From the IMG/VR virus record IMGVR_UViG_2541047699_000005: 28,826 nucleotides of DNA. One strand, written 5' to 3'. Each line of letters begins with the position of its first letter. Within the stretch, counting starts at the first letter, position 1. The DNA is from a virus (taxonomy: Duplodnaviria > Heunggongvirae > Uroviricota > Caudoviricetes). The notes beneath the pieces are model-generated. The model searched no databases. It had not been told where the DNA came from and was given only the letters and a program-made list of their open reading frames with translations. The position numbers and the translations under genes were made by a program. Below, piece after piece: positions 19,677 through 23,872 of this stretch.

Positions 19677-20216
19677 ATGGATATTAAAGATAAAATCAAT
19701 ACCATTTTGTTATGTGACATTGCCATCCACCTAGGTATCGAAACTGATATTGATCCACAGCTTGTTAAATATGCTGTGTCATCTGGTAATGATTGGGTTA
19801 TCAAGGCCGAATATTCACATTTGGATGTTGACGAACCAAGTAAAGAAGATCGTGATTTTGTTACTGCTGTCTTGAATATGTATCGCGGACTTTCCAATGC
19901 TTTCAGGAAACTTAGTGATGACGAGCAAAAAGAATTAGTCCGTGACCATCATCTAAAAATACATGATGGGGCAATTCAGCTCCCAGGTTTCGACGGTAAT
20001 AATGAATGCGATTACTTCAGTATCATTGAGGCATATCAGAAAATTGATCGCTTCCCCGAACAGAAACAGCCCATTGCCAATACTCATTCACGTACAGAAC
20101 ATCTCTATAACGCAATGCTTGATGAGTTTAAGAAAATTGACGCTGTAAATCGAAGCTGGGATTTATCGAAGGAAGAACTGGCATCCATTCTTTCCACAGC
20201 TCCACGCAGTTTCTAA
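19677..20216 (+). CDS. Moron gene on the opposite strand: 179-aa protein, possibly YfbU/UPF0304-like
   Basis: Only well-supported plus-strand gene in the phage backbone. AT-rich; GAGGG SD 7 nt before the ATG; followed by a hairpin terminator. Several blocks (MY..L, GFD, TH, LS..E..I) line up with E. coli YfbU as I recall it. Confidence 0.6.
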   Translation: MDIKDKINTILLCDIAIHLGIETDIDPQLVKYAVSSGNDWVIKAEYSHLDVDEPSKEDRDFVTAVLNMYRGLSNAFRKLSDDEQKELVRDHHLKIHDGAIQLPGFDGNNECDYFSIIEAYQKIDRFPEQKQPIANTHSRTEHLYNAMLDEFKKIDAVNRSWDLSKEELASILSTAPRSF

Positions 20217-20221
20217 GTGCT

Positions 20222-20488
20222 TTAGGCGGGTTTCCAACCCGCCTTATTATGCTCGTATATAGAGAAGGAAGCACCCAAATTAACCAGCGCGGATTTCTTT
20301 TCCTCAATACGGCTGTTAAGTTCAGCAACTGCATGCGGGCGTATGGCCTCAAGAAAAGCACTATATTGATAGGCAGACTGGATTGTCACACCAAGCCCTG
20401 CACCACTTTCCAGTATACCTTTCTGTCGCTGTAGCTCTTTCATCTCGTTATAGATGTAATGTGCGTTACTTAGGTTTTCTACGTTCAC
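20222..20488 (-). CDS. Hypothetical 88-aa protein (uncertain coding)
   Basis: ORF-track ORF with a GTG start and a weak, closely spaced SD; a possible -10 (GATAAT) lies upstream. It is convergent with the 179-aa gene. Confidence 0.3.
   Translation of the reverse strand: MNVENLSNAHYIYNEMKELQRQKGILESGAGLGVTIQSAYQYSAFLEAIRPHAVAELNSRIEEKKSALVNLGASFSIYEHNKAGWKPA
20225..20255. terminator. Palindromic hairpin with T-rich tail between convergent genes
   Basis: ggcgggtt-tcc-aacccgcc (20225-20243) followed by ttattat, starting 9 nt after the TAA of the 179-aa gene and overlapping the last codons of the minus-strand 88-aa ORF. Confidence 0.5.
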
Positions 20489-20643: not shown

Positions 20644-21126
20644 TTATCTGAGACATTGCTCACGAATGTATAGCTGTGCCCCTTCCAGTTGCTTCTGCAT
20701 CGTCATCAACCGTTCTCTGAGGGTGAAATAATCCCGTTCAGCGGTGTCTGCCAGTCTGGGGCTGGTTGCATTATCCACGCTGGTGGGTCCGGTGGCTTCA
20801 CGCACGGCTGCGGAGCAACTGGCATTGACCCGCAGGCGCTTACGACCAGCGGCAACATCAGCGCGCAGAGTTTCATTTTCAGCTTTCGCATTGGCTAATT
20901 CTCTCGAGTACTTTGCATCGAGCGCAGCAACATCACGCTGACGCTGTTGCATGTCAGCGATGGTGGCAGTCGCCTGCTTCAGCTCACTGACTTTTTTATC
21001 ACGCTGTTCTTTGTAGGCGATGGCGTTATCACGGTAATGATTGACCGCCCACGACAGGCAGACGATGGTGCAGATAACCAGAGTATAAATAATCGCTGCG
21101 ACTCTGCTCACTGATCTATCCCCCAA
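20644..21126 (-). CDS. Rz: Rz i-spanin
   Basis: 160-aa ORF with an N-terminal transmembrane segment followed by coiled coil, directly downstream of the endolysin, with Rz1 embedded. Confidence 0.85.
20706..20891 (-). CDS. Rz1: Rz1 o-spanin lipoprotein embedded in Rz in the +1 frame
   Basis: 61-aa ORF with a signal peptide, lipobox (VVSAC) and a proline-rich mature region, wholly inside Rz in a different frame. Confidence 0.8.
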
Positions 21127-21641
21127 CAGGCTAATGCGCTTTCCTGGTCACGACGAATAACCTGTCCATAGCAGTTATTTGAACGTATGCGGCAATCGCG
21201 CCCACCATCTTTTATCCACCAGCGAATCGCCTCGCATGCGCCCTTACGATCACCGGCATTCAGCCGCTTATAAAACGTCGACGGGAAACACTTACCGGGG
21301 CCAATGTTATAGGGACAGAATGACGCTATACCCGCTTTCTGTGGTTCGGTCAGTGGTACTTTAATATTGCGCTCTACCCATGCCAGCGCCTTATCACGTT
21401 CAATAGCGTTAACCTGGTCGCATTTTTCCTTCGACAGCTTCATTCCCGGTATGACGGGCTTACCATCCACCATTGTGGCACCCCGACAGATGGTCCAGAT
21501 GCCGGCCCCATCGCGGTATGCCGTTGTGTGGTTACCTTCTTTTTCATCCAGAAACTGGTCGAGAATATCAGGCGCGGGCGCACCGACGGCAATCAGTGCC
21601 AGAACGGCAGCCGACAGGCCGTATCTGATTTTTGCGTTCAT
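21108..21641 (-). CDS. R: SAR endolysin (T4-lysozyme-like muramidase with N-terminal signal-anchor-release domain)
   Basis: 177-aa ORF with a weakly hydrophobic Gly/Ala-rich N-terminal segment, then the E-x8-D-x5-T catalytic triad spacing ([16 protein letters not shown]). Confidence 0.85.
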
Positions 21642-21704
21642 GGATATTTATCAGGATTTATCGGTTTCTGCCCACGGACAGGTTTATCTGTTCCGGTCAG
21701 TGAC

Positions 21705-22055
21705 TTAAGGTTGTGATTCCGGAGGAGTCTTCAGAGAACCAGTAATTCTTCCTGGTAGCTTTCCTTTGTAGGTTATCCACACATTCTGCGCCTCTAAAAT
21801 TACGGGGCGCTTTTCCGGCGACTGCTCATCCCCTTCACATAACCCGGCAGCAACATCCAGGAAGACCTGTCTGATGCTCCTTCTGGCTGCTGCCTCATAA
21901 AACCCCAGCGCGGCACCTTCAACACGGTCCAGCGAGATGTCCAGGTCAAAAATTTCACCGTCAAAGCGTTTTTTGTCCCGTAACGCTAAAGTTACCGTAA
22001 CTTTATTCTCAAAATTGCGGATCCCTTTCACAATCAGTTCATAGTTTTGAGTCAT
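21705..22055 (-). CDS. YdfR-like (DUF1327-type) protein of unknown function inside the lysis cassette
   Basis: 116-aa ORF between holin and endolysin on the same strand; the position matches ydfR between essQ and rrrQ in the E. coli Qin prophage as I recall the gene order. Confidence 0.5.
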   Translation of the reverse strand: MTQNYELIVKGIRNFENKVTVTLALRDKKRFDGEIFDLDISLDRVEGAALGFYEAAARRSIRQVFLDVAAGLCEGDEQSPEKRPVILEAQNVWITYKGKLPGRITGSLKTPPESQP

Positions 22056-22059
22056 TGAA

Positions 22060-22275
22060 TTACTCTCCCCGTGCAGCCTTACGACGGTCCTCTCTGATTT
22101 TGAAATACAGGTTAGTCAGATATGTCAGGAAGCCCAGAACCAGACTCCCCAGTACACCAATCGCAGCCCACTGTGACGGACTGACCTGATCAAGCCACTG
22201 TAAAAACCAGTAGCCAGCACTGCCTGCGGAGGTGCCGTAGGCAATGCCCGTTGAAATTTTATCCATGGATTTCAT
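22060..22275 (-). CDS. S: Class II holin (phage 21 S-type pinholin)
   Basis: In-frame Met gives [71 protein letters not shown] (71 aa), with two transmembrane domains and the dual-start Met-Lys-Ser-Met motif; GGAGGTG SD upstream. Confidence 0.85.
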
Positions 22276-22440: not shown

Positions 22441-22446
22441 GCATGT

Positions 22447-22476
22447 AAAAAGGCCCCAACACATGTGCGTGGGGCC
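22447..22476 (-). terminator. Minus-strand terminator-like hairpin back-to-back with the plus-strand one
   Basis: Minus RNA ggcccca-(11-nt loop)-uggggcc followed by UUUUU, in the leader between the tRNA operon and the holin gene. Confidence 0.4.
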
Positions 22477-22676
22477 TGAGAGTATACATGGTTTCAGTCA
22501 ACTGCATGGTGCCGGGTGCCTCCCGGTGAATTCAGTACCAGCACCTGAATCCGCGATTATCCCATATACCTACTCGCTGATTGCCCCTCCGCACAGGGGG
22601 ATTCACCATGCCAGTTTCTTTTAACAAACTCCCCGCAAAACAGACAACTGTCAACCGTCTGAATTGTGAGACATTT

Positions 22677-22715: not shown

Positions 22716-22792
22716 CTGGCGCGTTGTACTGGATTCGAACCAGTGACCGATTGCTTAGAAGGCAATTGCTCTGTCCGGTTGAGCTAACAACG
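22716..22792 (-). tRNA. tRNA-Arg (anticodon UCU), CCA encoded
   Basis: Hand-folded cloverleaf: acceptor GCGTTGT/ACAACGC, D-stem GCTC/GAGC, anticodon stem ATTGC/GCAAT with loop CTTCTAA, T-loop TTCGAAT, discriminator G, CCA. Confidence 0.85.
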
Positions 22793-22805
22793 CAGGGTAC
22801 AGATA

Positions 22806-22882
22806 ATGGACCGCCATCGAGGACTCGAACCCCGCGCAACCAGCTTCGAAGGCTGGTGCTCTATCCTGATGAGCTAATGGCG
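22806..22882 (-). tRNA. tRNA-Arg (anticodon UCG), CCA encoded
   Basis: Hand-folded cloverleaf: acceptor CCGCCAT/ATGGCGG, D-stem GCTC/GAGC, anticodon stem CCAGC/GCTGG with loop CTTCGAA, T-loop TTCGAGT, CCA. Confidence 0.8.
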
Positions 22883-22889
22883 GTATGTG

Positions 22890-22965
22890 ATGGTGGCCCT
22901 TGCTGGATTTGAACCAGCGACCTGGCGATTATGAGTCGCTCGCTCTCACCTCTGAGCTAAAGGGC
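22890..22965 (-). tRNA. tRNA-Ile2 (anticodon CAU, lysidine-type, reads AUA)
   Basis: Cloverleaf with anticodon loop CTCATAA; overall sequence GGCCCTTTAGCTCAGAGGTGAGAGCGAGCGACTCATAATCGCC...CCA is very close to E. coli tRNA-Ile2 (ileX) as recalled, so it is read as Ile rather than Met. Confidence 0.8.
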
Positions 22966-22974
22966 CGGGCGCAG

Positions 22975-23164: not shown

Positions 23165-23193
23165 AATATATGCCTTTCAATCTACTTTTGCAA
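23165..23193 (-). promoter_or_regulatory. Candidate late promoter (pR'-like) overlapping the end of the Q-like gene
   Basis: On the minus strand: -35 TTGCAA, 17-bp spacer, -10 TATATT. The predicted transcript would run about 70-75 nt to the terminator at 23085-23110, giving a short 6S-like RNA. Confidence 0.4.
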
Positions 23194-23872
23194 CACTTTG
23201 CTTTGAAAATGCCGCCTTTTGTTTTGAACGTGTTCTCATTACAAACAATAAAGCCTCACTATCCAGTCGTTGAAAAATGTGTTTCATTGCAACCCAGTGA
23301 CGAGTAAATGTTTTGGACCAGTTTTTAGTTGTCACTCCCGCCAGTAATGCCAGCTCCTGGTATTCATAACCTTCCCCACCAAAAAGTTCTGCTTTTACTG
23401 CCTGCGCCGCCAGCCAGATTAATTTTTTCAGGCGTTCCTGCGTTTTCCCTGCAATTTTTCTGGTACCGGATTGAGTATTAAATTCATTCCACGCCCACTG
23501 TGTTATCGCGATCTGATATTCCCAACAAATACTCCCGCCGTAACACCACAACAACCAGGCTTTATGATGCTCTTCAAGAGACAGCAAAGCCCGCCGCCAT
23601 GATGATGTCGAAAACTCAACCGGGCTGACCAGGGCAATTGATGAGCCATTCGCCAGTGATTGTTTTCCCGGGATTGGTGGATTATCCCGCGTTATCATTT
23701 TTCCAGTCACTTCATCGCGGTACCGGATTTTTTTTCGCCTGTAACGCCCTGTATCGAACATGGCATTCTCCTGCCAGGCTTCAAGCTGACCTTTTGTTGC
23801 CCCACTCAAATCAGCGGTGGCGATAATGAGCTGCTCACGCACAAACTGTAAATACTGGTTATTCATGCGCAC
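23177..23872 (-). CDS. Putative late-gene antiterminator Q-like protein
   Basis: 231-aa ORF immediately upstream of the candidate late promoter/terminator and lysis genes, in the position of quuQ in Qin-like prophages. Assignment is by position; I do not recognise the sequence as lambda Q. Confidence 0.55.
   Translation of the reverse strand: MRMNNQYLQFVREQLIIATADLSGATKGQLEAWQENAMFDTGRYRRKKIRYRDEVTGKMITRDNPPIPGKQSLANGSSIALVSPVEFSTSSWRRALLSLEEHHKAWLLWCYGGSICWEYQIAITQWAWNEFNTQSGTRKIAGKTQERLKKLIWLAAQAVKAELFGGEGYEYQELALLAGVTTKNWSKTFTRHWVAMKHIFQRLDSEALLFVMRTRSKQKAAFSKQSVAKVD

Follow-up and report, generated by a model that had tools for sequence, protein, structure and literature searches.

The closest described counterpart of the gene considered here is ydfR of Escherichia coli K-12, which encodes YdfR (P76160) and lies in prophage Qin in the order essQ-ydfR-rrrQ-rzpQ, its start codon 4 nt past the stop codon of the holin gene essQ (labelled essD in the K-12 record). 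Further alleles are carried by O157:H7 prophages, by Stx1a and Stx2c phages and by phages 86, YYZ-2008 and mEp460. Both the gene and the S-ydfR-R arrangement, in which it sits between holin gene S and endolysin gene R, are already known. As such, the finding is ordinary: a catalogued gene without assigned function, correctly spotted by the first-pass annotation of this DNA. The literature that we searched on the DUF1327 gene and its lysis neighbours holds no functional study apart from work on RNase E interactors (PMC13232886, 2026); a genomics paper on O55:H7 mentions the gene in passing only.

That work recovered clones carrying ydfR codons 1–72 from a two-hybrid screen with RNase G as bait, which gave 43 candidates in all, and these clones bound RNase E constructs more strongly than the RNase G bait. 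Full-length K-12 YdfR gave a two-hybrid signal with Rne 1–597, and FLAG-tagged Rne 1–598 co-eluted with Strep-YdfR. The Strep-YdfR eluate contained much DNase-resistant nucleic acid, and the authors consider a contaminant, as an RNA binder, possible. Of three Rne/Rng baits, a single one gave a signal with a short-linker fusion of full-length YdfR. Overproduction of K-12 YdfR changed few transcripts, left growth unaffected and was not toxic (PMC13232886).

The window, by which we mean the whole 28,826-nt stretch of caudoviricete DNA analysed here (IMG/VR record IMGVR_UViG_2541047699_000005), carries a gene of the same Pfam family in the same slot, 4 nt after an S21-family holin gene and in front of the same type of lysozyme. 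Across residues 1–74 its product shares 80% identity (59 of 74 residues) and 95% similarity with K-12 YdfR. The two proteins part company past residue ~74: K-12 YdfR has 103 aa and an unrelated C-terminus, with a stop codon that overlaps the rrrQ start, whereas the window protein has 116 aa, an EKRP...KTPP module and a 63-nt spacer downstream of its gene. The Stx1a, Stx2c and lambdoid coliphage alleles (86, YYZ-2008, mEp460, O157 prophages) share the slot and the two-module architecture. Their N-terminal domains, however, are only ~62% identical to that of the window protein, and many have a long C-terminal extension (176–287 aa in total protein length) and/or a convergent partner gene, both of which are absent in the window.

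An accessory late gene within a lysis cassette

The features discussed below are listed in the direction in which the minus strand is read.

23177–23872, minus strand: Q antiterminator gene, which sets late transcription (PF06323, E 8.5e-91)
22441–22640, minus strand: prophage sRNA of the STnc100 family, upstream of S (Rfam RF02076, 140 bits; gathering score 47)
22060–22275, minus strand: S21-family class II holin (pinholin type), MKSM dual start, 71 aa (PF04971 'Bacteriophage P21 holin S', E 8.6e-36)
22056–22070, minus strand: S-ydfR junction, with GGAGAG at 22063–22068, the holin TAA at 22060–22062, a 4-nt spacer and the ATG
21705–22055, minus strand: ydfR-family (DUF1327) gene, from the ORF list; ATG start, 116 aa and a stop codon
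21840–22055, minus strand: N-terminal domain, codons 1–72, the DUF1327 core (from an AlphaFold model and identity to K-12)
21708–21839, minus strand: variable C-terminal module, codons 73–116, consisting of the linker CEGDEQSPEKRP, then VILEAQNVWITYKGKLPGRITGSLKTPP, then ESQP
21642–21704, minus strand: spacer and lysozyme leader, 63 nt, A/U-rich (GATAAATCCTGATAAATATCC), without a canonical Shine-Dalgarno sequence
21108–21641, minus strand: lysozyme of the Qin/933W R type, 177 aa (PF00959)
20644–21126, minus strand: Rz spanin (PF03245, E 1.9e-49)
20706–20891, minus strand: Rz1, embedded in Rz in another frame (PF06085, E 1.4e-18)

The window ORF is genuine: it is an accessory late gene of a lambdoid E. 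coli prophage and belongs to the YdfR/DUF1327 family. Working from the letters alone, the first-pass annotation had placed a 116-aa ORF at 21705–22055 and named DUF1327 as the family to look for; the ORF list gives exactly these coordinates, on the minus strand with an ATG start, and the Pfam DUF1327 profile matches the protein over positions 1–92 of 93 (E 9.2e-42; score 141.6 bits, cut-off 25), above the HMM threshold for membership of DUF1327, the 'YdfR family protein' of NCBI. A 100% identical copy in E. coli MS8345 bears that same RefSeq name. The protein also matches PHROGs 406 and 2091, both families without an assigned function, and gave no match in an NCBIfam scan.

The gene is under purifying selection. 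Comparison of the first 72 codons gives a dN/dS of 0.27 with the K-12 allele and of 0.29 with the O157 allele, which in this domain has diverged from the window allele until synonymous sites are nearly saturated. These low ratios, together with thousands of conserved copies, mark ydfR as a real coding gene. Other frames that overlap it, namely two plus-strand ORFs (21367–21708 and 21937–22044) and an internal 54-aa frame (21800–21964), were set aside as by-products of conserved coding sequences, the plus-strand pair as their shadows.

The window holin is 100% identical to S of phage phi458, in which S adjoins a 165-aa lysozyme; the window lysozyme is only 33% identical to that enzyme, and its relatives in the PDB are 3hde and 4zpu (RrrD). 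The hydrophobic, Ala/Gly-rich N-terminus and an E-x8-D-x5-T motif identify it as a putative SAR endolysin. The first-pass description of a phage-21-type cassette is thus right for the holin, and Rz/Rz1 are present as it said, but the lysozyme is of the Qin/933W type.

The full order is Q, three tRNA genes, STnc100, S, ydfR, R, Rz. A hairpin and U-run at 22445–22476, read from the sequence, form the 3′ end of STnc100, and late transcription must pass them. From the holin start to the Rz end, a crude consensus scan of the minus strand found no promoter-like or terminator-like site. Since Q, the tRNA genes and STnc100 lie upstream and the scan found no such site inside the cassette, S-ydfR-R-Rz probably form one Q-dependent late transcript, so that the earlier suggestion of co-transcription with the lysis genes appears sound.

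Two modules in the YdfR product

The product is predicted to be a 13-kDa soluble cytoplasmic protein that joins a beta-beta-beta-alpha domain (residues 1–72) to a short recombining C-terminal module. As the first-pass annotation had noted, it has no transmembrane or signal segment: the highest 19-residue Kyte–Doolittle mean in the ydfR protein is 0.69, compared with 1.72 in the holin and 1.87 in the lysozyme N-terminus, where the maximum falls at residue 9.

An AlphaFold model of residues 1–72, built from a diverse alignment, reaches a pLDDT of 89 and predicts three antiparallel beta strands (5–14, 18–27 and 34–43) followed by one long helix (50–71). Stand-alone DUF1327 homologues of 72–76 aa exist. 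In an alignment with distant members of the family, M1, Y5, Y53, E54 and A57 are invariant and G47 and L50 nearly so, and the window protein has the beta3-alpha core with the (E/D)G..L..YE.EA motif that defines the family. Structure searches gave little further guidance: Foldseek with the full-length model (pLDDT 65) returned nothing from the PDB at E ≤ 0.001, its matches among viral predicted structures were all uncharacterised proteins above E 0.003, and a profile search of PDB sequences gave 0 matches.

The C-terminal module (residues 73–116) is poorly predicted, with low-confidence beta strands in the full-length model. Between the window and O157 alleles, dS is 1.58 in the N-terminal domain and 0.17 in the C-terminal part, and in P0154 the same module stands behind another N-terminal part; judged by these comparisons, it behaves as an independently recombining unit. 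Other ydfR alleles run on past KTPP into extensions that bring the total length to 176–287 aa, and in DNA alignments all ydfR variants diverge directly after the KTPP codons.

Junctions with the holin and lysozyme genes

The Shine-Dalgarno sequence of ydfR, GGAGAG, sits within the last holin codons, and S and ydfR lie 4 nt apart in the window as in each of the 92 loci compared. Phage 933W lacks ydfR, and there the endolysin ATG lies 4 nt past the S stop codon, at the position of ydfR and behind the same GGGGAGAGTAA. We therefore conclude that ydfR, with or without further cargo, fills the S/R boundary and borrows the usual ribosome-binding site of the endolysin gene.

In ydfR-bearing cassettes, the endolysin gene has no canonical Shine-Dalgarno sequence. 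Every variant with ydfR has kept the last ~25–50 nt before the lysozyme ATG conserved, irrespective of the cargo that precedes them. The 63-nt spacer of the window folds no more stably than shuffled sequence (z −0.5), and Rfam finds nothing inside ydfR or this spacer.

Distribution and slots in the late operon

The gene is common in E. coli. Among complete E. coli genomes, 4104 of 5426 carry ydfR, in 8027 places in all, which puts it in the lysis cassettes of prophages in about three quarters of them, K-12 and Shiga-toxin phages included. The family as a whole is narrow. When 1.84 billion representative proteins were searched exhaustively with a profile, only 89 DUF1327 clusters emerged, and a scan of one genome per species with two peptide patterns found the gene in no genus but Escherichia and Shigella, apart from two MAG contigs that are evidently mis-binned. 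Distant members, 72–76 aa long, come from Pantoea, Cronobacter and metagenomic prophages.

In all 92 Escherichia loci and in the window, ydfR directly follows an S21-family holin gene and precedes a lysozyme gene of the Qin/933W type. Distant members occupy other positions. In Pantoea, DUF1327 is flanked by Q and by a type-3 holin that is accompanied by a GH19 endolysin; the copies from Cronobacter and from metagenomic contigs directly follow Rz; and others stand behind the tape-measure gene or among the tail genes, either between M and L or between I and J. A 70-aa ORF after a tape-measure gene is a borderline match only (E 7e-4, probability 27%).

A possible link to host RNase E

The most informative lead is the binding of RNase E and RNA reported for the K-12 homologue. 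The reading that we favour, tentatively and at somewhat below even chances, is that the window protein works in the late phase as a soluble effector, by binding to the catalytic half of RNase E and perhaps also to RNA. It is the best supported reading because the window and K-12 proteins are 80% identical over the very segment carried by the interacting clones. Under such a scheme, Q-modified RNA polymerase would transcribe ydfR together with S, R and Rz/Rz1, and translation would begin from the Shine-Dalgarno sequence in the last holin codons, the signal that would serve R wherever ydfR is absent. The N-terminal domain would then probably bind the catalytic N-terminal half of RNase E, like K-12 YdfR, and possibly RNA as well, and this binding would tune the processing and decay of host RNA in late lytic growth.

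Phage proteins that act on RNase E have precedents in T4 Srd, T7 gp0.7 and phiKZ Dip (gp37), which are likewise small and bind or modify the enzyme. Srd comes closest, in that its target is the catalytic N-terminal half, the part that K-12 YdfR is reported to bind; it differs in being a reported stimulator of RNase E on host mRNA, whereas ydfR belongs to the late genes of temperate phages. Between these three proteins and YdfR there is no sequence relationship and no significant structural one, so the parallel is one of kind and not of homology. Our own structure comparison is best taken as neutral towards a role at RNase E, neither supporting nor contradicting it.

Several observations speak against a role at RNase E. 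Those from the K-12 experiments are the 43 candidates of the screen, the single bait bound by the short-linker fusion, the few transcripts changed and the normal growth on overproduction, and the contaminant as a possible source of the RNA. The binding data also come from the K-12 allele only, whose C-terminus differs from that of the window protein. In Escherichia, ydfR is strictly tied to an S21-type holin, and the Keio deletion of ydfR scored in a screen for envelope integrity. If the protein does act on RNase E or RNA, it would give temperate phages an addition to the few phage proteins known to act on the host RNA degradosome, and it could influence late-gene output, in Shiga toxin phages among others.

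Convergent partner genes

The one part of our results that looks unreported in the literature searched is a pattern of convergent neighbours. All 7 distant DUF1327 contexts that we looked up have a convergent ORF of 70–128 aa within about 30 nt, in one case overlapping the DUF1327 gene by 4 nt, and three E. coli S-R variants also have a convergent ORF after DUF1327. Phage Evi shows the arrangement inside a lysis cassette, in the order S, DUF1327, a convergent 98-aa gene, R. Five of the partner types match PHROG families. One of them, phrog_25324, was used as the starting point of a search in IMG/VR that yielded 21 loci; DUF1327 is convergent and adjacent to it in 17, and it accompanies DUF1327 at four different insertion positions. 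In the other 4 loci the partner faces an ORF of 93–108 aa, whose 93-aa representative we rejected as a DUF1327 member (hhalign probability 0.2%). A G+C-rich hairpin often lies between DUF1327 and its partner and can terminate the partner transcript.

The pattern suggests that DUF1327 is a member of a mobile, moron-like cassette. A bolder form of the idea would make DUF1327 the invariable component, on the late strand, of a mobile pair of convergent genes with a hairpin terminator between them, a pair that has entered at least six intergenic slots of late operons in enterobacterial prophages. The two products, or the collision of their transcripts, would switch between a function active in the lysogen and its silencing in lytic growth, possibly through RNase E or RNA, and the window copy would derive from such a pair without its partner; we regard this as rather doubtful. 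Applied to the window, the corresponding proposal is that its gene is the orphaned half of a two-gene cassette in which the DUF1327 protein, or its transcription, counters or regulates a partner expressed from the prophage. With its partner lost, the window gene may survive as a leftover that does little by itself.

We consider this somewhat unlikely, for all that the pairing recurs in every distant context looked up, in the three E. coli variants, in 17 of 21 phrog_25324 loci and in Evi, with partners that fall into PHROG families and a hairpin placed to end their transcripts. The break that all variants show directly after KTPP also suits a lost partner: in the window, only 63 nt separate ydfR from the lysozyme gene at this point, and the convergent partner is absent. 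However, two partner types that we searched for in E. coli occupy ~1232 and 335 places against 8027 for ydfR, so partner-less copies such as those of the window and K-12 are the majority, and purifying selection persists on them. The partners, moreover, are mostly unrelated to each other in sequence, with only the phrog_25324 type recurring in BLAST comparisons, and a simple scan found no promoter for the convergent genes. Neither the DUF1327 gene nor its convergent partners match known defence systems in a PADLOC scan. Finally, it was a partner-less allele, that of K-12, that gave the RNase E data.

A role in lysis timing

From the position of the gene, the first-pass annotation had suggested a role in lysis timing or lysis inhibition, to be given up if, among other things, the sequence matched a well-characterised non-lysis protein. 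No such match emerged, because YdfR is itself poorly characterised. The suggestion finds no support in the comparisons: the gene is optional, its relatives occur outside lysis cassettes, and 933W does without it. A dedicated role in the lysis machinery is most likely not what the window protein has.

Two forms of regulation can be envisaged. YdfR could be a cytoplasmic, antiholin-like protein that binds the charged cytoplasmic tail at the C-terminus of the S21 pinholin, or ydfR could serve as a spacer whose presence reduces or postpones endolysin translation; in both cases it would determine when lysis occurs. The strict tie to an S21-type holin in Escherichia leaves room for a lysis function, since every Escherichia locus examined has ydfR in the S-R interval, coupled to the holin gene at a constant 4 nt, and R, left with an A/U-rich leader, has no strong Shine-Dalgarno sequence in ydfR-bearing cassettes. 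T4 RIII offers a precedent as well: this antiholin is small, soluble and cytoplasmic, and it also binds S1, a host protein connected with RNA. RIII, however, belongs to a lytic phage, where it acts alongside the T holin and RI, and it has no detectable homology to YdfR by Pfam or PHROGs. The K-12 Keio deletion of ydfR is among the hits of the CPRG screen for envelope integrity, but we suspect that the resistance cassette may have acted there through polarity on the adjacent lysozyme gene, rrrQ.

Weighed against these points, most of the comparative evidence makes a lysis regulator unlikely. Unlike RI- or LydB-type antiholins, the ydfR protein has no membrane or periplasmic part, and it resembles no annotated antiholin or lysis family, searches of Pfam, PHROGs and NCBIfam returning only DUF1327 families of unknown function. 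Linkage to a holin does not extend throughout the family, whose distant members adjoin unrelated holins or sit far from lysis genes altogether. Nor does the S21 holin depend on it: DUF1327 occurs in 101 phage records and an S21-family holin in 438, and three quarters of the phage records with an S21 holin are without DUF1327. Near-identical ydfR alleles (97–99%) are paired with holin alleles that are 79% or 86% identical to that of the window, and overproduction of K-12 YdfR caused no growth or lysis defect. Should the gene turn out to tune a pinholin and SAR endolysin after all, it would represent a novel type of lysis regulator, one that works in the cytoplasm.

It is very improbable that ydfR is a neutral filler, a selfish or decaying ORF without function that is kept as ribosome-binding context between S and R, for although it is optional in related phages, highly mosaic, present in databases in many truncated, fused and duplicated variants and without phenotype when overexpressed from K-12, its N-terminal domain has a confidently predicted fold, is conserved as far as Pantoea and Cronobacter prophages and retains a dN/dS of ~0.27–0.29 over alleles saturated at synonymous sites.

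Resemblance to morons

Returning to the preferred reading, ydfR looks more like optional cargo that possibly acts on host RNase E than like a part of the lysis clock, as far as sequence comparison can tell. Morons of lambdoid phages are additional genes that separate two neighbours which stand side by side in related phages, and ydfR resembles them in several respects. It is present or absent exactly at a gene boundary, for which 933W provides the empty site; its G+C content is slightly lower than that of its neighbours (47.6% versus 51–53%); and its relatives occupy several intergenic slots of the late operon. It may differ from morons in that a crude scan of the window revealed no promoter or terminator of its own, and in that it appears to take its ribosome-binding site from the 3′ end of the holin gene.

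Recombination within ydfR and size variation of DUF1327

The ydfR-family (DUF1327) gene is itself mosaic, with a breakpoint that separates window 21840-22055, encoding the N-terminal domain, from window 21705-21839, encoding the C-terminal part. Compared with the O157 allele, dS is 1.58 for the former and 0.17 for the latter. Every ydfR allele diverges directly after the KTPP codons, and in sequence comparison this site looks like a recombination hot spot. Elsewhere, DUF1327 also exists in long variants (176-287 aa) whose C-terminal extensions are unrelated, with no match to Pfam families in those scanned, and two proteins of 170-176 aa contain two tandem copies of the domain.

Long or tandem-domain DUF1327 variants (comparison proteins, then comparison DNA loci in their own coordinates)
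P0020, P0025, P0128, P0185, P0191
L011 270-890
L090 3001-3807
L129 1801-2592

The family may be wider than HMM searches reveal; a 70-aa ORF immediately 3' of a tape-measure gene (comparison locus L120, 3529-3741, minus strand) bears a weak likeness to DUF1327 (hhalign E 7e-4, probability 27%).

A convergent partner outside the window

DUF1327 genes outside the window are nearly always followed 3' by a small convergent ORF, which is encoded on the opposite strand and is 70-128 aa long; a hairpin often separates the two genes. The pair occupies at least six different intergenic slots in late operons, and one partner family, phrog_25324, adjoins DUF1327 in 17 of 21 IMG/VR loci. Both the window copy of ydfR and the K-12 copy lack the convergent partner.

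Comparison loci with the DUF1327/partner pair (own coordinates)
L003 2252-2840
L088 3001-3766
L090 3001-4131
L093 4001-4545
L095 1226-1765
L098 4001-4506
L101 3501-4040
L102 705-1232
L105 511-966
L106 3501-4134
L130 1801-2340

Features flanking ydfR

In ydfR-bearing cassettes the lysozyme gene (R) has no canonical Shine-Dalgarno sequence and is preceded instead by a conserved leader that is A/U-rich and contains a GATAAAT repeat. The strong GGAGAG with which the holin gene closes serves R in phage 933W and ydfR in the window.

Window 21642-21704, minus strand: lysozyme leader (corresponding region compared in L003, L004, L005 and L088)
Window 22441-22640, minus strand: STnc100-family prophage sRNA (RF02076, 140 bits)
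Window 22717-22966, minus strand: three tRNA genes (Arg-TCT, Arg-TCG and a CAT-anticodon tRNA)

The tRNA genes lie between the antiterminator gene Q and the lysis cassette, where Stx phages have their ileZ-argN-argO-type tRNAs, but no toxin genes follow the three-tRNA group in the window. ARAGORN calls the CAT-anticodon tRNA Met, whereas the RefSeq annotation of an identical locus gives Ile. Between these tRNAs and the holin gene, the strong STnc100 match ends in a terminal hairpin and U-run (window 22445-22476). A 2026 preprint connects STnc100 with the PasD sRNAs found in Stx-type prophages.

Other likely cargo and probably mislabelled records

Two further genes, located between Rz and the HNH/terminase genes, are likely to be another cargo insertion in the late region.

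Window 19677-20216, plus strand (opposite to the lysis cassette): YfbU-domain gene
Window 20222-20488, minus strand: 88-aa ORF that matches no family

The lysis cassette of this E. coli prophage also turns up under other names: in contigs placed in a Veillonella parvula MAG (L009) and a Bacillota MAG (L011), and with P0071, a protein that bears the label Enterococcus faecalis. The most likely explanation is that the public data contain an error of binning or contamination.
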